NCBI GenBank assembly: GCA_016186485.1
Contig: JACPLN010000003.1
Location: 23,305-87,304 of the forward strand
Source of the DNA: Candidatus Nealsonbacteria bacterium
GTDB taxonomy: Bacteria > Patescibacteriota > Minisyncoccia > Minisyncoccales > UBA6532
Direction of reading: 5' to 3'
DNA: 64,000 nucleotides
Position 1 is the first letter of the stretch. Every line of letters begins with the position of its first letter. The notes below the pieces were generated by a model. It saw only the letters and a list, made by a program, of their open reading frames with translations, ran no database searches and was not told where the DNA came from. Below, one piece after another: positions 5,587 to 59,477 of this stretch. The translations under genes and the position numbers were made by a program.

Positions 5587-6846
5587 ATGCTGGACATTAA
5601 ATTTATCCGCCAAAATCCAGAAAAGGTAAAAGAGGGGATTGCTAAAAAGCAGGCCAGTGTTGATATTGACCGGCTTTTGGAGGTTGATCAAAAAAGGCGG
5701 GAAACAATCATGGCTTTGGAAGACATGTTTAGTAAAAAAAACAGGGCTTCAAAAGAAATTTCTCAAAACCAGGATGAAAGAGAAAAACAAAGGCTTATTT
5801 TGGAAATGAGAGAACTTGATACAAACAGCGATAGATTAAAGGAAGCCTTTGAATCTCTTGATAAAGAATTTGAGTTTTTGATGAAACAAATCCCTAATTT
5901 GCCGGAAGACGATGTGCCCATTGGTAAAGACGAAAAAGACAATAAGGTCATAAAAGAGTGGGGCAAAAAACCGGAGTTTAAGTTTGTGCCCAGAGATTAT
6001 CTGGAAATTTCTGAGAAGCTGGATATTATTGACGTCAAAAGAGCGGCAAAGGTTGCGGGCACAAGATTTGGGTATATAAAAGGAGAGGCGGCGCAGCTTG
6101 AGTTTGCTTTGGTTAATTTTGCAATGGATATTTTGTTAAAAGAAGGTTTTGTGCCTGTTGTTCCTCCGGTAATGATAAAAGATAAAATGATGGAGGCTAT
6201 GGGTTATGCCTCTTCAGAAAAGGATAAAGCAGAGCGTTATCTTCTTAAAGAAGATAATTTATATCTTATTGGGACGGCAGAGCAGGCCTTGGGTCCTCTT
6301 CATGCCGATGAGATTTTAGAGAATTTGCCCAGGCGCTACGCCGGATTTTCATCTTGTTTCAGGAGAGAAGCCGGGGCCTACGGCAAGGACACTAAAGGAA
6401 TTTTGCGGGTTCACCAATTTGATAAGGTGGAAATGCTAAGCTTTTGCGAACCCCAGCAATCAAAAAAAGAGCTTGATTTTTTGCTGGAGATGGCAGAAAG
6501 GCTAATGCAGCTACTTAAGATTCCATATCGCGTGGTGCGCTTGTGCGGCGGCGACCTGGCAAGGCCGTCTGCCGCAACTTACGATATTGAAGCTTGGTTG
6601 CCGGGGCAAAACCAGTATAGGGAAACCCATTCTGTTTCTACAACCACAGATTTTCAGGCAAGGCGCCTAAATATACGCCATCGTGGAAAACAAGGCCTTG
6701 AATTTGTGCACATTCTTAACGGTACCGCTTTTGCAATAGGCCGTATGCTAATTGCCATTATTGAAAACTACCAGAAAAAAGATGGCAGTGTATTGATACC
6801 AAAAGTCCTCCAAAAATATCTTAAGTTTAAAGCAATCAAAAGATAG
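5587..6846 (+). CDS. serS: Seryl-tRNA synthetase
   Basis: N-terminus 'MLDIKFIRQNPEKV' and class II aaRS core motifs. Confidence 0.95.
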   Translation: MLDIKFIRQNPEKVKEGIAKKQASVDIDRLLEVDQKRRETIMALEDMFSKKNRASKEISQNQDEREKQRLILEMRELDTNSDRLKEAFESLDKEFEFLMKQIPNLPEDDVPIGKDEKDNKVIKEWGKKPEFKFVPRDYLEISEKLDIIDVKRAAKVAGTRFGYIKGEAAQLEFALVNFAMDILLKEGFVPVVPPVMIKDKMMEAMGYASSEKDKAERYLLKEDNLYLIGTAEQALGPLHADEILENLPRRYAGFSSCFRREAGAYGKDTKGILRVHQFDKVEMLSFCEPQQSKKELDFLLEMAERLMQLLKIPYRVVRLCGGDLARPSAATYDIEAWLPGQNQYRETHSVSTTTDFQARRLNIRHRGKQGLEFVHILNGTAFAIGRMLIAIIENYQKKDGSVLIPKVLQKYLKFKAIKR

Positions 6847-6997
6847 TAATAAAAAAATAATGGTTGCCTTTTGAATAAGCAACCTTACAGTATTATAGAG
6901 AGAGGGAAGGGGTCTTTGATTAGTTGTTGGACTCAATGCCTTATTGTGCTTTAGTACCCCCACCTTCTCTTTGTTGGTATTTTTATATTATCATACC

Positions 6998-23052: not shown

Positions 23053-24009
23053 ATGAATGAATCTAATAACCCTATAATTAAACATATTCCCGACTTTTTG
23101 GATTATTGCGAGGTTGAAAAAGGCTTGGCAGATAAAACTCAGGAAAACTATAAAAGGTACTTGGAAAAGTTCGTATTCTGGTTAAAGACAACCAAAAAAG
23201 CGGATTTAAAGCCACACGAACTTACCCCGGACGATATTTGGGCTTATCGCTTATATTTAAGCCGATTTCGGGTAAAATCGGGTCAATCCCTTAAAAAAGT
23301 CACCCAAAACTACTATTTAATTGCTTTAAGGGCTTTTCTGAGCTATTTTACCGCTAAAGACATACTTTGCCTTCCTGCGGATAAAATAACCCTTCCAAAA
23401 GACATTAAACGCGAGAAAAGCCTTAAGTTCCTTACCCTTGAACAAATAGAGAGGCTGCTTTTGGCTCCTGATACCAAAAACCTGTCCGGGTTGCGAGACA
23501 GGGCAATCGTAGAATCCCTTTTCTCTACCGGTTTAAGAATAGCTGAACTGGTGGCTCTAAATAGAGAACAGTTTGCCAACCTGAAAGAAAAAAAGGATTT
23601 AGAACTTGGGGTGATTGGCAAGGGCGGTTACCCGAGAACCGTCTACTTTTCAGAAAGAGCAATTTCCTGGGTTAAAAAGTACTTGGAAACCCGTAAAGAC
23701 AAGGAAAAGGCTCTGTTTGTTCACTACAGGGCCAGAAAAGGCGCGGAAGCCCGACTGACGGCTCGTTCCATAGAGAGAATCGTCAAAAAGTATGCAATTT
23801 TGTCCGGCATCCCAATTTTTACTACCCCTCATACCCTCCGCCACAGTATGGCTACCGACCTTTTAACACAAGGGGTTGATTTAAGAACTATTCAAGAATT
23901 TTTAGGGCATAAAAATATTGTTACAACCCAAGTCTATACTCATGTAACAAACAAACGTCTGCGCGATATCCACCGCCAATTCCACAGCGGCAAAAATCTT
24001 AAAGTATAA
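23053..24009 (+). CDS. Tyrosine site-specific recombinase (XerC/XerD/integrase family)
   Basis: C-terminal catalytic block 'HTLRHSMATDLLTQGVDLRTIQEFLGHKNIVTTQVYTHV' (R..HxxR..Y). Confidence 0.9.
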   Translation: MNESNNPIIKHIPDFLDYCEVEKGLADKTQENYKRYLEKFVFWLKTTKKADLKPHELTPDDIWAYRLYLSRFRVKSGQSLKKVTQNYYLIALRAFLSYFTAKDILCLPADKITLPKDIKREKSLKFLTLEQIERLLLAPDTKNLSGLRDRAIVESLFSTGLRIAELVALNREQFANLKEKKDLELGVIGKGGYPRTVYFSERAISWVKKYLETRKDKEKALFVHYRARKGAEARLTARSIERIVKKYAILSGIPIFTTPHTLRHSMATDLLTQGVDLRTIQEFLGHKNIVTTQVYTHVTNKRLRDIHRQFHSGKNLKV

Positions 24010-31080: not shown

Positions 31081-32283
31081 TTATAATTCATTTAATAAAT
31101 TAATTGCTTTATCCAGCTGGGGATCTTTTTCGCTTTTAATATTATCTTCTGTTATTTCAATTTTAACATCTGGTTCCAAACCAAGGCCGGAAATAAGGTT
31201 TCCTTTTGGGGTCAGCCAGCGGGCTATGGTAACCTTGATTGACCCTTCTCTTAAATCTTCCAGTTGCTGAACAGATCCTTTTCCAAACGACTTTTCCCCT
31301 ATTAATTTTATACCACGATTATCTCTTAGGGCTCCAGCCAGAATTTCAGAAGCGGAAGCCGATCCCTCGTTAATCAGGACCGCCACGGGGTAGTTTACAA
31401 ACGGCCCGCTTCCATTAGATTTATATTCATTTTTTTCTTTATTTTGTCCGAAGTCTTCTATGGCCACTATTTCTCCTTTCTTTAGAAACCAGCTTGATAT
31501 GTCTTGGGCAATCTCAAGGAATCCTCCCGGGTTGTTGCGAATATCAAGAATAATTTTCTTTGCATTGCTATTTAATATTTTAATAGCTGCCTTGGAAAAC
31601 TCAACTCTTGCCGTTTCTGAAAAATGGTAGATTTTAATATAAGCTATATCGTTATCTTTAATTTCAAATTTTATTGAAGGAATTTGGATAACGTCTCTTA
31701 TTATTTCAAAGTCTTTTGTTTTTTGCCATCCCTTTCTGGCTATAGTAAGAATAACCGCGGTTCCTTTTTGGCCTCTTATCAGCCTCACTGCTTCTTCAAC
31801 AGTCATATCTTGGGTTGAACTTCCGTTGACCATAATGATTTTATCTCCCGCCATAATGCCCGCTATAAATGCAGGGGTTTCTTCCAGGGGAGAAATTACT
31901 GTAATCTGGCCGTCTCTCATTCCTATTTCCATTCCTACTCCCTGGAATTCACCAGACATGTCTTCTTTAAATATCTTGCTTTCTTGAGGAGGCAAAAAAA
32001 CGGTATAGGGATCTTTCAAAGATTTTAACATGCCGGAGATAGCCCCGTAAAGCATTTGTTTTGGGTCCAAATTATCCCTTTCAACGTATTTATTTTGTAA
32101 GATCGCCCAAGCTTCCCAAAACAAAGAGAAGTCTACTCCTTGCGGCTGGCCAAGTTCAGAGTTTTGAACGCCGAAAATAATTTCCGTTCTCGCCTTTGAT
32201 TTTCCAAAGTAAAATCCGGAACCGAAAGCGCTCGCCCCCAGAAATAAAATAAAAACAAAGATTATTACAACCTTTTTATTCAT
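31081..32283 (-). CDS. S41-family C-terminal processing peptidase (PDZ domain)
   Basis: PDZ 'GVGMEIGMRDGQITVISPLEETPAFIAGIMAGDKII' and an S41 catalytic-region pattern. Confidence 0.85.
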   Translation of the reverse strand: MNKKVVIIFVFILFLGASAFGSGFYFGKSKARTEIIFGVQNSELGQPQGVDFSLFWEAWAILQNKYVERDNLDPKQMLYGAISGMLKSLKDPYTVFLPPQESKIFKEDMSGEFQGVGMEIGMRDGQITVISPLEETPAFIAGIMAGDKIIMVNGSSTQDMTVEEAVRLIRGQKGTAVILTIARKGWQKTKDFEIIRDVIQIPSIKFEIKDNDIAYIKIYHFSETARVEFSKAAIKILNSNAKKIILDIRNNPGGFLEIAQDISSWFLKKGEIVAIEDFGQNKEKNEYKSNGSGPFVNYPVAVLINEGSASASEILAGALRDNRGIKLIGEKSFGKGSVQQLEDLREGSIKVTIARWLTPKGNLISGLGLEPDVKIEITEDNIKSEKDPQLDKAINLLNEL

Positions 32284-32395
32284 TTGGTTTATTGCTTCTA
32301 TTATAACAGCTTTGTGAATTACATCAAGAATTTGTACAAATAAAAATTCTTATTTGACAAGAATAAAATTAGTTATATTATATAACTGGTATCCA

Positions 32396-32836
32396 ATGTG
32401 CGAGGTGGTTCAGGTAAAAACCGATTTTATAATAATCCGCGGCGAGATACCGGTAGAAATCTTTAGACTATTGCAAAATCCGCAATGGGAAGAGGCCCCG
32501 CCTCTATATAAAAACCGGTGCGGAACGCATAAAGGAAAGATATTCAGGCGTATAAGCTTCTGGGGATATAATCTTAGCGATGAATCAGATGAAATCTGCG
32601 GAACACAATACAGAATTATCATCAAAGATATCTTTACCAATTGGGGAATTGCTCTAAGAGGATACGCGCCATTCGTTTGTTTTCCGCAAGAAACAGAAAA
32701 AAATAACAAGGTTCCTGTTTTCTTGGGAGGATTTCACCCCCTGTCTATGGGTAATAATTTTGAAGCCCAAACAGTTATCTGTGAAATTATCATAGAAATT
32801 CTTAACTCGGCATCCGAAGCTCTGGTTGAAGCTTAA
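32396..32836 (+). CDS. Hypothetical protein (start taken at the first ATG). A promoter TTGACA-17-ATTATA lies about 14 nt upstream, so the mRNA is near-leaderless
   Basis: ORF. The -35 is embedded in the inverted repeat ATTCTT-N9-AAGAAT. Confidence 0.35.
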   Translation: MCEVVQVKTDFIIIRGEIPVEIFRLLQNPQWEEAPPLYKNRCGTHKGKIFRRISFWGYNLSDESDEICGTQYRIIIKDIFTNWGIALRGYAPFVCFPQETEKNNKVPVFLGGFHPLSMGNNFEAQTVICEIIIEILNSASEALVEA

Positions 32837-32839
32837 ACA

Positions 32840-32867
32840 AAAAGGCCTTAGCTAGAGCCTTTTTTTA
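32840..32867 (+). terminator. Terminator AAAAAGGC-10nt-GCCTTTTT followed by a T-run
   Basis: Hairpin plus U-tract directly after the stop of the 32396-32836 ORF. Confidence 0.6.
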
Positions 32868-32881
32868 TGCACTGCTCTTTA

Positions 32882-32918
32882 AAAAAAAGAATGGGCATCC
32901 TTTTGCGAGAAGTGCCCA
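32882..32918 (-). terminator. Terminator (GGGCA-loop-TGCCC followed by U8) for the GC-rich HD gene
   Basis: The hairpin followed by TTTTTTTT is on the minus strand, immediately 3' of the HD-gene stop. Confidence 0.5.
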
Positions 32919-32920
32919 TG

Positions 32921-33556
32921 TTATGCCCGAAGGCGAGCAAGCGATCTGGCGATGTTTCGCCGAGCTTGCGTTTCGTACTTGTTGCGGAAGAGCTGTGTAG
33001 AGTAGATTGCCGATCGGTCGAGAAACGATTTCAGTATCGCTGACCGTCCGGCGACAAATGCATCTTCGGCGACCCACTCGTACTCCCTGCGAACCTGTCG
33101 CTCGTATTCATCGAACTTGTCCTCGGACTGACCGAGAATCGAGAGGTCGATGTCCACGAGAAGCTGAACATCAGGATCAGTGGGAACCGAAGTGTGCTTC
33201 GTTGCCGTGATGAGATTTACCACCGATAGTCCGAGATCGTCGGGCAACGAAGCATTTCTCACCATTTCTACCGCGAGCACCGCACTCCGCTCTTCGCTGT
33301 CTTTGGCCTTGGTATCGTAGATTGTGTCGTGATACCAGAGAGCCAATTCCACGGTGTCGGGATTGGTTACGAGGTTTCGGACTTGCTCGAATTCGTCAAG
33401 ACAGTGCCCGATGTGCTCAAGCGTGTGGTACGCTCGGTGCGGTTCAGAGTATCGCGCAACAAGGTCGTTGTAGACCTTACTTGCGTCTCCTCGCGCACCA
33501 AGGCGTTTCCACAAAGCCGTCCAGCGTTGTTCTTGTGTCATCGTCATCCTCTTCAT
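32921..33556 (-). CDS. HD-superfamily metal-dependent phosphohydrolase (small COG4339-like HD protein), compositionally foreign
   Basis: 'YHTLEHIGHCLDEF...LALWYHDTIYD' His/Asp motif spacing. GC is about 55% against a visibly AT-rich background. Confidence 0.7.
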   Translation of the reverse strand: MKRMTMTQEQRWTALWKRLGARGDASKVYNDLVARYSEPHRAYHTLEHIGHCLDEFEQVRNLVTNPDTVELALWYHDTIYDTKAKDSEERSAVLAVEMVRNASLPDDLGLSVVNLITATKHTSVPTDPDVQLLVDIDLSILGQSEDKFDEYERQVRREYEWVAEDAFVAGRSAILKSFLDRSAIYSTQLFRNKYETQARRNIARSLARLRA

Positions 33557-33664
33557 TACCTAGATTTCACTCAAGGATAGGATAGCATATCAGACCATAA
33601 AAGCCAAGAGGCGACAAGTGTCGTTTCTTGGAGAGAATCTTATGAAAATTTTTCTTTTCCAACG

Positions 33665-33739
33665 TGGTACCCCCGGTGGGATTCGAACCCACAACTCTCA
33701 GCTTAAAAGGCTGATACTCTACCATTGAGTTACGGGGGC
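33665..33739 (-). tRNA. tRNA-Lys (anticodon UUU), CCA encoded
   Basis: Cloverleaf: acceptor GCCCCCG/CGGGGGU, D-arm ACUC-AAUGGUA-GAGU, anticodon loop CUUUUAA, T-arm GUGGG-UUCGAAU-CCCAC. Confidence 0.9.
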
Positions 33740-33748
33740 GTATTCTGA

Positions 33749-34822
33749 TTATATCCCTTCCTCTCTCAATTTTTCAAGCAGTTCTTTTTGTTTTTTGGTT
33801 ATTTTTTTCGGCGTTTTAACTATTAATCTTGCGTAAAGATTTCCCCTGCCGTATCCGGAAAAACGAGGAATCCCCTTGCCGGAAATTTTAAAAACTTCTC
33901 CTGATTCAATACCGGCCGGAATGTTAAGCAAAACGCTGCTTTTTTCTAGGTTTGGAATTTCAATTTTGTCTCCTAACGCCGCTTGGGAAAAAGAAACAGG
34001 AACATCAACATATATATCGTCTCCCTTTCTTTCAAAAAGAGGATGCTTCTTAACAAAAATTTTTACGAAAAGGTCTCCGGATTTTCCTCCTCTTTTGCCA
34101 GCATCGCCCTTGCCATCAATTTTTATCACTTGGTTTTCGTCAACGCCCGGGGGAATTAAAATCTCAATCTCTTCTTCTCCGGCTACCCTTCCTTCGCCTT
34201 TGCAGACATTGCATGGTTTTTCCGGCTTTGTCCCTTCTCCTTTGCATTCGGGACAAATTGCGTATCTGGCAAACGATCCAAGAAAAGTTCTTTTTATTTG
34301 CTGAACTTCCCCGGATCCTCTGCATGAAAAACATTCATTAATTTTACTGCCGGGTTCTCCGCCTGTCCCCCCGCATCTTGAACAAAATATCATTTTCTCT
34401 AAAGAAATATTTTTCTTCAAGCCATTCAAAGCCGCTTCCAATGGTATTTCAATCCCGACCTCAATATCTTTGCCTTGTTTTAAATCGCTTTTTGGATTAT
34501 TTCTGCCAAAACCGAAAAAGTCTCCGAATATTTCGCCAAAATCTGTCATTGATTCAAAGTCAAAACCAAATCCGCCTTCGGCGGAAAAGCCCTGATCAAA
34601 ACCTGACCCGTTTCCTTCAAAAGTTCTGCCGAATTTGTCGTACTGGGATTTCTTGCTGTCGTCTGAAAGAACCTGATACGCTTCGTTTATTTCCTTGAAC
34701 TTTTTTTCGTCCCCGCCTTTATGGGGATGGTGCTTATGGGCCAGTTTGTAATACGCTTTTTTTATTTCATCCTTGGAAGCGTCGCGGGAAACCCCTAAAA
34801 TTTGATAGTAATCTTTATCCAT
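33749..34822 (-). CDS. dnaJ: Chaperone DnaJ
   Basis: J-domain '[31 protein letters not shown]', G/F region and four CxxCxGxG zinc motifs. Confidence 0.95.
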
Positions 34823-34830
34823 TATGTTTT

Positions 34831-36666
34831 TTATTTATGCTCGTCGTCCTTTTTATGCATTTGGGTTCCGACCTTCTGGAGAGCCTGGGATAATTCCTGG
34901 GTTTTTTGCTTAAGGTCAGCCAAATTATCACTGTCTTTTATCTTTTTCAGCTCTTCAATTTTTTCTTCAATTTCCTTTTTCACATCCGAAGAAATTTTTT
35001 CCCCCATTTCTTTTAGGGTTTTTTCCGCGGTATAAATCAATCCTTCGGCTAGGTTTCTGGCTTCTATAATTTCTCTTTTTTTCGCGTCTTCTTCGGCGTG
35101 CAATTCAGCTTCCTTTTTCATTTTTTCTATTTCTTCTTTTGAAAGGCCGACCGACCCTTCAATCCTAATTGATTGAGATTTGGCCGTTGCCTTGTCTTTA
35201 GCGGTTACCGTTAAGATTCCGTTGGCGTCAATATCAAACGTGACTTCAACTTGGGGCATTCCTCTTGGCGAAGGCGGAATCCCGTCCAAAAAGAACCTTC
35301 CTACCGATCTGTTATCTTTTGCCATTGGCCTTTCTCCCTGCAGAACATTTATTTCCACCGAAGTTTGATTGTCTGCGGCGGTTGAGAAAACTTGAGTTTT
35401 TGAAACAGGAATAGTGGTATTCTTTGAAATCATTACCGTATTAACGTTCCCTAAGGTTTCAATTCCCAAAGAAAGCGGCAGAACGTCCAAAAGCAAGACG
35501 CTTTTAATTCCTTCTTCAGCCCCTTTGCCCCCCCTAACTATTTCAGCCTCAATCGCAGCCCCTAAGGCAACTACCTCCTCCGGATTAATGGATATGTTTG
35601 GTTCTTTGCCGAAAAAATCTTTCACCGCTTTCCTAACTGCAGGAATTAAAGTTGTTCCTCCCACCAAAACAATTTCTTCTATCTCGGATTTGGCCATCTT
35701 AATTTCTTCCAAAGTTTTCTTCACCCTCTCAATAGACCTGTCAACCAAATCACTTGTTAGGTTTTCAAACTGAGCCCTTGTCAGCTTCATTAATAAATGT
35801 TTGGGGCCAGAAGAATCCGAAGTAATAAAAGGAAGGTTTATTTCCGTTTCTAGGGCGGAAGATAGCTCAATTTTTGCTTTTTCTGCCGATTCTTTTAGTC
35901 TCTGCAGAGCCAGAGGATCTTTTGACAGATCAATTCCGCTGTCTTTTTTAAATTGTTCTACGACCCAATTGATTATTCTTTGGTCAAAGTCTCTTCCCCC
36001 CAAATGCGGCTCTCCGCCGGTAGCCATAACTTTAACGGTATCCGGGGTAATATCTAAAATTGAAACGTCAAAAGTCCCGCCCCCGAAATCATAAACCGCT
36101 ATCTGCTGGTTTGTTTTTTTCGTAAACCCGTAAGCCAAAGCCGCGGCAGTGGGCTCGTTGACCAGCAACAAAACGTTGAACCCGGCGATTTCACCGGCTG
36201 CTTTGGTTGCTTTTCTTTGAGAATCGTCAAAGTTTGCGGGGCAGGTAATGACAGCATCGGTTATTTTCTCTCCTAATTTTTCTTCGGCATCCAATTTTAT
36301 CTTTTGAAGAATCATTGAAGAAATTTCAATCGGGGTCAGCCATTTGTCTCCCATTTTCACCTCAACTTCGCCGTCTTTCCTTTCCCTCGTCTCATAAGAC
36401 AAAAGCTTTAATTCTTTCTGGACTTCACTGTCCTGAAACCTTCTTCCGATAAACCTTTTAACCGAATGGATAGTGTTTTTGGGATTGGTAATGGCCTGCC
36501 TTTCTGCCAAAATTCCAACCAATCTTTCTCCTGTTTTGGACAACGCCACAACGGAGGGCACCAAAACAGAACCCTCTAGGGCTTCAATGCACTTGGGCTC
36601 CCCGTCTATAATGGAAGCCATTTTTGAAATGGATGTTCCTAAATCTATTCCTAATACTTTTGACAT
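34831..36666 (-). CDS. dnaK: Chaperone DnaK (Hsp70)
   Basis: 'GIDLGTS', 'DLGGGTFD' and other Hsp70 signatures. Confidence 0.97.
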
Positions 36667-36682
36667 AATTTTGAAACTTTAA

Positions 36683-37141
36683 TTACTTATTTATTTTGAC
36701 CCTGGCAGGTCTTATAATCCTGCCATTAATTTTATAACCTTTTTGGATTTCTTCAAATATAACGCCCGATTCCTTGTCTTTGATCTCAATTTCTCCGACT
36801 ACTTCATGCAGATTAGGATCAAATCTTTCCCCCATTGTCTTCATTTCTTCTACCCCCCGGCTTTTTAGAAAGTTTTCCAGCTGGCTTTTTATCTGCAATA
36901 ATCCCTTAACGTTTTCATTATTTTTTTCGTCATCTGGTATATTTTTTTCCGCTATTTCTAAGTTGTCCAAAATTGGTAAAAGCTTTATTATTAACTCTTC
37001 TGCGCCGTAGTCAAAAAATTCTTTCGCCCTTTTCGCCTCCTCCTTTTTATAATTTAAAAAATTTGCTCTTTCTCTTTGCCAGCCAGCCAGGTATTCTTCT
37101 GCCTGTTTTTGGCATTCGTTTTTATCTGTTTTATCTGCCAT
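36683..37141 (-). CDS. grpE: Nucleotide exchange factor GrpE
   Basis: GrpE coiled coil plus beta-domain, positioned between hrcA and dnaK. Confidence 0.9.
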
Positions 37142-50197: not shown

Positions 50198-50239
50198 TCT
50201 AACCTAATACTATTATAAAAGTAAACCGTGTCAATCTAG

Positions 50240-50310
50240 TTCCGGGGCTTGGATTCGAACCAAGATTCCATGCTCCAGAGGCATGTGGCCTACCTTTAGC
50301 CGATCCCGGA
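50240..50310 (-). tRNA. tRNA-Gln (anticodon CUG), U1-A72, no encoded CCA
   Basis: Cloverleaf with D-arm GGCU-AAAGGUA-GGCC, anticodon stem CAUGC/GCAUG with loop CUCUGGA, and T-arm CUUGG-UUCGAAU-CCAAG. Confidence 0.8.
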
Positions 50311-57894: not shown

Positions 57895-58155
57895 TTATCT
57901 ACCTTCAAGATAGTGCTTTAATTGTTTCTTAAGGTATCCGCGGCCGGAGCCACTCTTAAGAAATTTTTCTCTCCCCAAAGCATCATTTTTATCAAGATAT
58001 GCTTCAAAATAAATTGGTTTCCAGTCCTCTTTGCGACTTGTAGTTCTGGCTCCATCTCCGGCATTATGGCGCTTGAGGCGTTCAGTCAAATCTTCAGTCA
58101 TTCCGATATACCAAGATTTATCACTTTGGTTATCAAGAAGATAGACGTAATACAT
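57895..58155 (-). CDS. GIY-YIG nuclease-domain protein (stand-alone, 86 aa)
   Basis: 'YYVYLLDNQSDKSWYIGMTEDLTERLKRHN' is the canonical GIY...YIG...R..H.N block. Confidence 0.8.
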   Translation of the reverse strand: MYYVYLLDNQSDKSWYIGMTEDLTERLKRHNAGDGARTTSRKEDWKPIYFEAYLDKNDALGREKFLKSGSGRGYLKKQLKHYLEGR

Positions 58156-58265: not shown

Positions 58266-58410
58266 TTTTACGCGGCTTGCCACGTGATGAGCGAACATAG
58301 TGAGCGAATTTTACGCGGCTTGCCACGTGATGAGCGAACATAGTGAGCGAATTTTACGCGGCTTGCCACGTGATGAGCGAACATAGTGAGCGAATTTTAC
58401 GTGGCAGGGG
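58266..58410. repeat. Perfect 43-bp tandem direct repeat x3, plus a partial 4th copy
   Basis: The unit is TTTTACGCGGCTTGCCACGTGATGAGCGAACATAGTGAGCGAA. It is identical at 58266, 58309 and 58352. Each copy contains a CACGTG palindrome and an internal GAGCGAA...GAGCGAA sub-repeat about 11 bp apart. Confidence 0.9.
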
Positions 58411-58479
58411 CACCCTGAGTTGCACAGGGATCAATGGTTTTGGAGACCATTATTCTGCTATTAAACTATGCCCCCATAA

Positions 58480-59253: not shown

Positions 59254-59294
59254 ATTCTTTTAATTTAAAAATTAAAAATGAAAATTTGATTCTG

Positions 59295-59367
59295 AGCCCA
59301 CGCGCAGATTTGCACTGCGGACCTCGTCTTTACCAAAGACGTGCTCTTCTGCCTGAGCTACGTGGGC
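59295..59367 (-). tRNA. tRNA-Thr (anticodon GGU) with a non-canonical T-loop UGCAAAU
   Basis: Acceptor GCCCACG/CGUGGGC, D-arm GCUC-AGGCAGAA-GAGC, anticodon stem CGUCU/AGACG with loop UUGGUAA, T-stem CGCAG/CUGCG. No CCA encoded. Confidence 0.75.
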
Positions 59368-59390
59368 ACATTGGTGGGCCAAGTCAGACT

Positions 59391-59477
59391 TGGTGGGCAG
59401 GGAGGGACTTGCACCCCCGAAGTCCTTACGGACGTCAGATTTACAGTCTGATGCGTTAGCTGCTCCGCCACCTGCCC
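59391..59477 (-). tRNA. tRNA-Tyr (anticodon GUA), long variable arm, T-loop UGCAAGU, CCA encoded
   Basis: Acceptor GGGCAGG/CCUGCCC, D-arm GCG-GAGCAGCUAA-CGC, anticodon stem UCAGA/UCUGA with loop CUGUAAA, variable stem GUCC/GGAC. Confidence 0.75.

Follow-up and report, generated by a model that had tools for sequence, protein, structure and literature searches.

Genomic islands targeted to tRNA genes are mobilised by tyrosine integrases, as in the tycheposons of Prochlorococcus, and some modules that lack a recombinase of their own borrow that of the host, among them the dif modules of Acinetobacter plasmids and the Xer-exploiting elements (IMEX). At the protein level, a nucleotidyltransferase is paired with an HD hydrolase in NadD-YqeK. 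Here we describe a GC-rich gene for a predicted HD-fold metal-dependent phosphohydrolase that follows a tRNA-Lys gene in a genome of a Candidatus Nealsonbacteria bacterium (Patescibacteria, also called CPR for candidate phyla radiation; GenBank assembly GCA_016186485.1). The gene lies in a 64,000-nucleotide (nt) stretch of contig JACPLN010000003.1 (positions 23,305 to 87,304 of the forward strand), hereafter the window, to which all coordinates refer unless a locus is named. In our view, a small mobile cassette circulates among Patescibacteria, and positions 32873-33664 of the window are likely one of its copies, gained by horizontal transfer and since partly eroded.

On the minus strand the gene order is grpE (36683-37141), dnaK (34831-36666), dnaJ (33749-34822), tRNA-Lys(UUU) (33665-33739) and then the HD gene, which is co-oriented with the tRNA gene directly upstream and separated from it by a 123-nt non-coding stretch. 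The maximal open reading frame (ORF) of the HD gene spans 32921-33556 (636 nt, 211 amino acids [aa]). An ATG at 33541 is favored as the likely true start, because it is preceded by GAGGA and yields 206 aa plus the stop codon (32921-33541), so that the product is exactly as long as the deposited protein and all its homologues. The original prediction had called the gene compositionally foreign, at about 55% GC, with GC falling at both ends, and the measurements agree. The gene has a GC of 53.9% (40.2% for the window as a whole), which no other 636-nt segment surpasses (z = 4.7), and GC drops to 38-43% within ~200 nt on either side. Among 64 non-overlapping ORFs of the window, the HD gene has the highest GC content at third codon positions (GC3; 0.613 against 0.397 +/- 0.048, z = 5.6) and the largest codon-usage distance (0.665, median 0.31). 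Milder GC-rich spots are found elsewhere in the window, in a DEAD-box helicase gene and in some unassigned ORFs.

A search of 5.8 billion proteins returned matches of which the best 120 are 65-100% identical, and every named one among these belongs to Patescibacteria: Nealsonbacteria (the source genome), Sungbacteria, Lloydbacteria, Azambacteria, Liptonbacteria, Minisyncoccia and Paceibacterota, with Vogelbacteria found separately. HD copies in Sungbacteria, Lloydbacteria, Azambacteria, Vogelbacteria, Liptonbacteria, Minisyncoccia and other lineages show protein identities of 75-90% and DNA identities of 75-88%, whereas the housekeeping proteins common to the window and the HD-bearing loci (UppS, SIMPL and MurD-like) are only 29-45% identical, and the DnaJ of the source genome has no relative above 70% among the 5.8 billion proteins. 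Synonymous divergence (dS) to the nearest copies is 0.39-0.6, and the median ratio of nonsynonymous to synonymous divergence (dN/dS) of ~0.15 indicates that the gene is under purifying selection. The gene neighbourhood is different in every lineage. In the complete Nealsonbacteria genome CP179888.1 the corresponding site is empty, with grpE-dnaK-dnaJ, tRNA-Lys, ~300 nt and ctpA-rplI-pyrG but neither the HD gene nor the ORF that converges on it in the window. Counting this genome, three syntenic relatives (L112, L113 and L114; L numbers denote the compared loci) that share the order grpE-dnaK-dnaJ-tRNA-Lys ... ctpA-rplI lack the HD gene at this site. The contrast in identity between the HD gene and the housekeeping proteins, the DnaJ ceiling, the differing neighbourhoods and the empty site thus establish horizontal transfer.

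Acquisition from outside was also what the original prediction proposed, and it had singled out the same GC-rich gene at the same locus in relatives as the observation that would speak for an ancient rather than a recent presence; the three syntenic relatives carry no such gene there. Two of its other proposals did not survive. It expected a high-GC donor among Proteobacteria or Actinobacteria, whereas the named hosts among the best 120 matches are all Patescibacteria, and relatives on proteobacterial plasmids and phages are only 26-44% identical. It also expected a single-gene insert, and the insert is instead a deleted copy of a two-gene, promoter-to-terminator cassette that recurs beside tRNA genes. 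Some metagenome-assembled contigs with the cassette (L017-L020) carry the labels “uncultured Candidatus Saccharibacteria” or “Gammaproteobacteria”; we drew no conclusion on host range from these labels. The two contigs under the Gammaproteobacteria label, being short (2.5 and 4.9 kb), may be binning errors.

The cassette, not the bare gene, is the transferred unit, since similarity among copies reaches past the ORF to include leader, promoter and terminator. In pairwise blastn comparisons of the loci, similarity never extends past ~1.3 kb, and a larger island hidden around the cassette was rejected on this ground. A full-length cassette measures 1.0-1.3 kb (for example in L032, L021 and L008). 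It opens with a ~107-nt leader and a hairpin that abuts the -35 box and shows compensatory pairing, followed by a predicted promoter (TTGACT-17-TATCTT) and a hairpin in the 5' untranslated region (5'-UTR). A partner ORF of 87-99 aa without family assignment comes next, with the HD gene 11-15 nt downstream, and the cassette closes with a hairpin terminator and a ~70-nt right end that finishes in ..AATCCGAATCCGCCA, like a tRNA 3' end (..TCCGCCA). In two alternative forms, coaD or an ORF of 65-71 aa takes the place of the 87-99-aa partner. Whatever the GC of the flanks (28% to 54%), the HD gene of the cassettes has a GC of 48-58%, and the cassette as a whole stays at ~50-58% irrespective of its host. 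A profile search with the leader returned matches with cassettes only, so that the leader was rejected as a general tRNA trailer motif; an Rfam scan of the window and five cassette loci found tRNAs only and no known RNA family in the leader. In L008 (~6735-6890), and also in L025, L030, L032 and L040, a second conserved non-coding unit of ~150 nt follows the ..CCGCCA end of the cassette. The opening of this unit (AAGAAAAACTTGAAATTGTCA ... GGTTCGGACTAA .. TGCAC(CA)) recalls that of the cassette leader, and its close recalls a tRNA 3' end.

The window copy (32873-33664, 792 nt, minus strand) is a trimmed version of this unit. It starts at the base after the tRNA-Lys CCA with the first 11 nt of the leader (CGTTGGAAAAG, 33654-33664), and the junction, CCA-CGT(A/T)GG(G/A)AA with the hyphen marking the boundary, is the same in L008, L021, L032, L026 and L001. 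The remaining ~100 nt of the leader were deleted between GAAAAG repeats. The conserved core starts with AAAAATTTTCATAAGATTCTCTCC (33630-33653), which is common to L025, L026, L030, L032 and L040, and continues with the hairpin just upstream of the -35 box (AAGAAACGACA CT TGTCGCCTC, 33608-33629). Over the 17 loci compared, this hairpin keeps its pairing through compensatory changes, being mostly GCGGCA/TGCCGC, CGACA/TGTCG in the window and different in L003, L016 and L029; it may serve as an insulator, terminator or operator. The putative promoter (33579-33607), with its -35 box TTGGCT at 33602-33607, a 17-nt spacer and the -10 box TATCCT at 33579-33584, is conserved in position and sequence across 17 loci, and the HD gene is predicted to be expressed from it. 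A deletion scar at 33559-33568 marks where the 5'-UTR hairpin and the 87-99-aa partner ORF were lost, apparently between AAATCT repeats; alignments split here into two pieces, 33559-33659 and 32873-33567.

Right after the stop codon stands the predicted terminator (32881-32919), a 12-pair interrupted hairpin (32891-32919, -14.4 kcal/mol) with an eight-U run within the U-rich stretch 32881-32890. In 14 distinct copies from other genomes, 97% of the positions are paired and three double changes are compensatory, a result equalled in none of 500 shuffles. The GC-rich hairpin, the U-tract and the conserved pairing all point to a Rho-independent terminator that travels with the gene; a simple terminator scanner overlooked it because its loop is longer than the rule allows. 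The private terminator of the original prediction is therefore real as far as covariation can tell, and of the two terminators that it placed back to back the one of the cassette stands, whereas the hairpin assigned to the convergent neighbour (32839-32864, plus strand, inverted repeat I9) is weak (-9.3 kcal/mol, z = -0.6). On the right, similarity runs out at 32873-32880 (blastn alignments end at 32873-32884), and the ~70-nt right end (..GACTGAAATTCGTTAGAATTTCAGTAATCCGAATCCGCCA) is absent. The window copy thus retains the 11 leader nt, the hairpin, a weak promoter, the HD gene and the terminator, and has lost most of the leader, the partner and the right end.

The position of the gene at the 3' flank of tRNA-Lys, already remarked upon in the original prediction, belongs to a wider pattern. 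The tRNA gene (33665-33739, minus strand; found by ARAGORN, 75.6 bits with the Rfam tRNA model) is intact and encodes its CCA, and the cassette begins at the next base. We counted co-oriented tRNA genes within 1 kb upstream of the 27 distinct cassettes with enough upstream sequence, taking ORFs of the same loci as controls, and found them for 11 of 27 cassettes against 7 of 101 control ORFs (Fisher p = 6.5e-5). The tRNAs are Lys(UUU), Arg(CCG), Leu(UAA, CAA, UAG), Ser(GGA), Ile(GAU), Ala(GGC, CGC) and Glu(CUC); the cassette is therefore found preferentially, with statistical support, at tRNA 3' flanks, whatever the identity of the tRNA. Where the leader is long, the junction is exact to the base, reading ..(G/T)(C/A)ACCA-CGT(A/T)GG(G/A)AA after complete tRNA-Lys, tRNA-Arg and tRNA-Leu genes, with CCA-CGTAGGAAA identical in several abutted tRNAs. 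The same junction follows orphan GCACCA fragments in L001 and L026, and a variant follows tRNA-Ser in L016. Because the acceptor stem of each abutted tRNA still matches its own 5' strand, any crossover must have fallen at or after the discriminator base (N73-CCA). Each of the five tRNA genes directly joined to the long leader has an encoded CCA, compared with 11 of the 36 other tRNAs in the loci (p ~0.006 by a hypergeometric estimate), and the syntenic tRNA-Lys genes of the three relatives have no encoded CCA.

Some loci carry repeats at the tRNA boundary. An 18-nt tRNA-Ala 3' end is duplicated right before the cassette in L033, three partial tRNA 3' ends are spaced by ~150-180-nt non-coding units in L026, and in L016 the motif TCCGCCA flanks the cassette on both sides. 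These att-like repeats are suggestive of classical integrase activity. The tRNA-to-cassette stretches of L026 (3081-3480) and L033 (1305-1460) are arrays of ~150-180-nt non-coding units, each with a partial tRNA 3' end and an inverted T-arm copy, which resemble miniature integrated elements or their remnants. In L032 (2911-3381), an ORF for an HNH endonuclease (156 aa) ends 7 nt before the cassette-bearing tRNA-Leu.

The protein was assigned by motif and fold. Residues H39, H43, H71-D72, H116, D130 and D132 are invariant in 30 sequences, and the AlphaFold2 model (predicted local distance difference test score 96.5) has ten helices in an all-helical HD fold. The Foldseek matches in PDB are mainly HD-fold enzymes (probability ~1.0, E >= 0.016, template modelling [TM] score 0.45-0.62, identity 9-16%), dominated by cyclic-nucleotide phosphodiesterases and including YpgQ, 2pq7 and the HD domain of a tRNA-processing enzyme; uncharacterised phage HD hydrolases come closer in fold, with TM scores up to 0.86. 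No NCBIfam model matches the protein, a search of PDB by sequence gave chance-level matches only, and no PADLOC defence-system model matches it or the neighbouring ORF. Named full-length matches (E 1e-85 to 1e-131, coverage 96-100%) are annotated as “predicted metal-dependent HD superfamily phosphohydrolase” or, as a misnomer, “N-methyl-D-aspartate receptor NMDAR2C subunit”. The family, which we take to be COG4339, comprises 13,189 clusters at 50% identity for E <= 1e-3 and 9,046 for E <= 1e-10. A literature search found no published characterisation of it, with nothing under “COG4339” and nothing relevant for a bacterial “NMDAR2C subunit”, and found nothing on tRNA-linked islands in Patescibacteria or on HD proteins with pantetheine-phosphate adenylyltransferase (PPAT, CoaD).

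Most Patescibacteria copies have the small ORF without family assignment in place of a CoaD partner. CoaD is encoded directly upstream, with overlapping stop and start codons, in 7 of 28 loci of the Patescibacteria clade and in 19 of 34 loci whose HD protein is 40-55% identical, and in nine of the latter 19 it is fused to CoaE. Gene order, the most telling functional clue, ties the family to the final steps of coenzyme A (CoA) synthesis. The CoaD call is well above the curated cut-off (TIGR01510, 151-169 bits against 103). In metagenome loci L063, L070, L072, L080-L082, L090, L097 and L099, whose HD protein is 43-50% identical to that of the window, the HD gene follows a fused CoaD-CoaE of 375-411 aa, the bacterial two-domain arrangement for the last two steps of CoA synthesis. 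Since the HD gene appears translationally coupled to CoaD or CoaD-CoaE across the wider family, we infer that its product may be a metal-dependent phosphohydrolase whose substrate is a CoA-related nucleotide or a phosphopantetheine conjugate. Parasites with reduced genomes that retain CoaD and CoaE alone and salvage the precursor are treated, for mycoplasmas, in PMC8721197.

There are several other ways to account for the locus, and they can be weighed against the evidence above. The contig might be an assembly or binning artefact, in which a fragment of a higher-GC organism was misjoined; the interior of the cassette (32966-33630) does behave as a repeat in the metagenome, four Logan contigs break there, and the internal sequence could be a consensus of similar copies. 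These contigs, reached through the neighbouring genes, nevertheless cross both junctions. Three of them, derived from three sequencing runs, are identical to the window over a stretch that leads from pyrG/ctpA across the right junction to 32966, 46 nt inside the gene, where they end, and the fourth runs from dnaJ across tRNA-Lys and ends at 33630, 35 nt past the CCA. Because independent assemblies cross them, both junctions are genuine, and the breaks inside the insert are explained by an interior that is common to other genomes in the same samples. Misjoining an insert of 800 nt would in addition need two chimeric joins, and the same arrangement of tRNA, cassette and host gene occurs in many other assemblies, which makes an artefact very improbable. 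We hold it to be just as hard to credit that the gene is an old, vertically inherited resident whose high GC and conservation come from selection on the protein or mRNA. Purifying selection and the wide occurrence of the gene in Patescibacteria would fit. A GC3 of 61% against 40% is nevertheless beyond what protein constraint explains, synonymous divergence is far below saturation where housekeeping proteins are 29-45% identical, the non-coding promoter and terminator are conserved together with the gene, and neither the lineage-specific neighbourhoods nor the absence from the syntenic site in three relatives is expected of a resident.

A second pair of alternatives concerns what the gene does and what carries it. 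It could be cargo of a Patescibacteria phage or plasmid, either a “moron” or a counter-defence gene for a hydrolase of signalling nucleotides, with the tRNA flank as the site of integration and decay. The family is common on mobile DNA: the HD protein matches PHROG 19425 (E = 2.5e-34), and homologues occur on jumbo phages and in 111 Pseudomonas megaplasmid records. The best viral fold matches are phage HD hydrolases, the PDB matches are dominated by cyclic-nucleotide phosphodiesterases, and the partial tRNA 3'-end repeats beside L026, L033 and L016 are typical of integrases. We nevertheless regard this as improbable, given that no relative above 40% was found in 2.9 million viral contigs (IMG/VR), in INPHARED or in PLSDB, that no defence-system model matched, that no phage or plasmid genes flank any of ~27 cassettes examined, and that the copies are alike over no more than ~1.3 kb. 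One apparent phage homologue, on CAKLQH020000004.1 (“Acinetobacter phage MD-2021a”, L118), is surrounded by rpoH, thiG, thiS and rtcR and looks like bacterial chromosome, not phage. Alternatively, the link to tRNA genes might be functional: the HD protein would work on the ends of tRNA or RNA, for instance in 3'-end repair as a phosphatase or 2',3'-cyclic phosphodiesterase, with its gene kept beside tRNA genes for co-expression and spread by ordinary gene transfer. One of the Foldseek matches (3wfq, E ~0.04) is the HD domain of a tRNA-processing enzyme of CCA-adding type, and a distant homologue on viral contig L105 lies 2 kb after a nine-tRNA array. Rhodococcus phage NiceHouse has a 32%-identical homologue between a tRNA gene and an RNA ligase gene. 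In that phage (L116; MT521992.1, 105545-107823) the homologue is annotated “hydrolase” and follows tRNA-Ile, with genes for a metallophosphoesterase and an AAA-ATPase upstream, a set that resembles RNA repair. A passage of PMC10761072 reports that PPAT, the usual partner, caps RNA with phosphopantetheine. Against this, the structural matches reflect the generic HD fold (TM 0.45-0.6, E >= 0.016), siting beside tRNAs of any identity is no known arrangement for tRNA repair genes, the cassette has its own promoter, with a hairpin between tRNA and promoter in many copies, half of the cassettes have no tRNA nearby, and CoaD or CoaD-CoaE, called above a curated equivalog cut-off, is far the commoner partner. 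An RNA-end role is thus the weaker alternative to a CoA-related one, and we think it quite unlikely.

A transferred cassette with a CoA-related cargo remains our preferred reading, and the following observations weigh against one part of it or another. For the protein, the score with Pfam HD (PF01966) is 16.4 bits (E = 0.011), below the curated cut-off of 22, so that membership of the HD superfamily follows from motif and fold. The CoA link is one of gene neighbourhood, the 64 kb of the window contain no coaD or coaE, and the HD copy of the window has no upstream partner. For mobility, the distribution of the copies is what speaks, as no recombinase, transposase or circular intermediate was found. 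Targeting of tRNA genes is not absolute, because about half of the cassettes do not adjoin one, and their left boundaries vary; in L044 and L047 the cassette lies after the tRNA's own terminator, and in L003, L030 and L031 there is no tRNA nearby. The window cassette has no att-like repeat, the only direct repeats around it being 11-nt matches such as chance would give. Because the closest available relatives are themselves distant (DnaJ 64-70%), they set loose limits on when the gene arrived, and a dS of ~0.4 means that the transfer was not very recent. Finally, the window promoter is a weakened form that matches 8 of 12 consensus positions and falls below the threshold of a simple scanner, so that a copy with neither partner gene nor strong promoter may be decaying. 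Cassette copies do decay, as seen in the Vogelbacteria copy (L021, 6001-6469), where a ~146-nt internal deletion has probably left the HD gene a pseudogene.

How the cassette moves can be stated only conditionally. There is no integrase ORF in the 792-nt insert and no recombinase or transposase within +/-6 kb of the other copies. In the window, the absence of an integrase or direct repeats nearby was noted in the original prediction and is upheld: the nearest integrase-type gene is ~9 kb from the HD gene, behind housekeeping genes. This gene (23053-24009, plus strand), with Phage_integrase and SAM-like N-terminal domains, encodes an XerC/XerD-like tyrosine recombinase that is probably the chromosome-dimer resolvase; a scan of ORFs from 20 to 46 kb turned up no other recombinase. 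One candidate for a flanking repeat, TTTTCCAA(A/C)GT at 32200 and 33655, matches at 10 of 11 nt, lies inside ctpA and was taken as chance. The most economical reading is that the recombinase is supplied in trans; recombination after DNA uptake or an RNA-mediated capture may be alternatives. Copies have repeatedly settled a short way behind co-oriented tRNA genes that differ widely in identity; insertion would take place at or just past the tRNA 3' end, through a recombinase in trans or recombination after uptake. In the Nealsonbacteria genome the cassette sits in the gap between dnaJ/tRNA-Lys and ctpA, stripped of its partner gene, its right end and nearly all of its leader.

A bolder possibility, which we put forward tentatively and think rather unlikely, is a new minimal mobile element, that is, a ~1-kb module without a recombinase that inserts exactly at the CCA end of any tRNA gene across class-level distances in Patescibacteria. 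What favors it is that all five abutted tRNAs encode CCA, that the tRNA-Lys genes of relatives do not, and that the acceptor stems are kept. It would require an enzyme in trans that recognises the end of a tRNA gene, or else RNA capture, in which a cDNA, made as the template switches from the transcript of the cassette to a mature tRNA with its CCA tail, would then recombine into the tRNA gene.

The surroundings of the insert vary as well. The gap between tRNA-Lys and ctpA differs in content between relatives; L114 has an FGE-sulfatase, an amidase and DinB there, and L112 has a GIY-YIG gene before tRNA-Lys and repeated GGGCAC(CC) fragments after it. In L113, whose gap is empty, tRNA-Lys is followed by a short sequence, AAGGAAAGTCAACCTCGCG, with some likeness to the first part of the leader; it was not recovered by the leader profile and may be a scar or chance. 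The convergent ORF of the window (32354-32836, plus strand; 160 aa maximal, 146 aa deposited) has a native-like GC and is absent from L113, and it belongs to the same variable gap, outside the cassette. It matches only itself among 5.8 billion proteins and has no family match, and it may be a fast-evolving gene or no gene at all. Beyond it lie a ctpA-like S41 peptidase gene (31081-32283), rplI and pyrG, named from their translations and the Pfam labels of syntenic loci.

The window has five tRNA genes (33665-33739, 50239-50310, 58402-58475, 59294-59367 and 59391-59477), of which three encode CCA (Lys, Trp and Tyr) and two do not (Gln and Thr), and inserted or repeated sequence follows exactly the three with CCA. 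The 3' flank of tRNA-Trp (58402-58475) begins CCA-CGTA, as does the flank taken up by the HD cassette, and the CCA is followed by three tandem 43-nt repeats (CGTAAAATTCGCTCACTATGTTCGCTCATCACGTGGCAAGCCG; 58273-58401, minus strand), each with an inverted copy of the tRNA-end junction (CACGTGGCA). After these repeats comes an 86-aa ORF with a GIY-YIG nuclease domain (57895-58155, minus strand; Pfam E = 1.3e-16). Part of the tRNA-Tyr 3' end recurs, as GCCCACCA, in the 23-nt spacer between tRNA-Tyr and tRNA-Thr (59368-59390, minus strand).

As a single event, this acquisition is an ordinary genomic islet. We see as beyond the ordinary that a compact cassette without a recombinase occurs across deeply divergent Patescibacteria, prefers tRNA 3' flanks, where one form joins the CCA end with base precision, and carries a member of a large uncharacterised family linked to CoA. 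Few mobile elements have been recognised in the tiny genomes of Patescibacteria, whose gene exchange is poorly understood; the cassette, with defined ends and a preferred landing place, is a concrete, traceable example of that exchange. If targeting of the CCA end were a real mechanism, it would amount to gene insertion without an element-encoded recombinase. The coupling of the HD gene to CoaD or CoaD-CoaE points to a missing step in the salvage or turnover of CoA or phosphopantetheine, which would be of consequence to bacteria that depend on a host and lack full synthesis of the cofactor, and it is a testable lead on the substrate of a family of ~9,000 clusters at 50% identity.

Among known systems, islands targeted to tRNA genes are alike in their foreign composition and insertion at the tRNA 3' end, and several cassettes lie in tRNA clusters; the arrays of partial tRNA 3' ends in L026 and L033 and the TCCGCCA on both sides in L016 also recall them. 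Unlike such islands, the unit is just ~1 kb, no copy has an integrase in or near it, and one and the same cassette abuts at least four tRNA identities with acceptor stems intact, the window copy having no attL/attR repeat. The dif modules and IMEX share with the cassette the property of being small and self-contained and of moving between replicons without their own recombinase, and the window does encode the XerC/D-like protein. The cassette differs from them in its targets, which are tRNA ends and not dif; its own ends showed no dif-like inverted binding sites, and the hairpin on the left is unlike that on the right. Integron cassettes likewise hold one or two genes in ~1 kb, occur in many contexts, have a structured 3' end and are followed head to tail by further units, as in some of our loci. 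The HD cassette departs from them in having its own promoter and Rho-independent terminator; by eye it has no attC-type palindrome with core and inverse-core sites, and no integron integrase or attI is nearby. A non-autonomous element of IS200/IS605 type (HUH) was rejected, since the hairpins at the two ends differ in sequence, L008 does not conserve the left one and no locus has a transposase; insertion 3' of a short fixed motif, here CCA, is the sole trait in common. As for the cargo, the Patescibacteria copies stand apart from the wider HD family as one tight group of at least 65% identity that moves as a cassette. The protein shares the H...HD...H...D ligands and the all-helical fold with solved HD phosphohydrolases (YpgQ [5dqw], 2pq7, 2pjq and cyclic-nucleotide phosphodiesterases) at 9-16% identity, and its gene resembles the HD gene of NadD-YqeK in usually being encoded right after a nucleotidyltransferase of the same superfamily, in this case CoaD.

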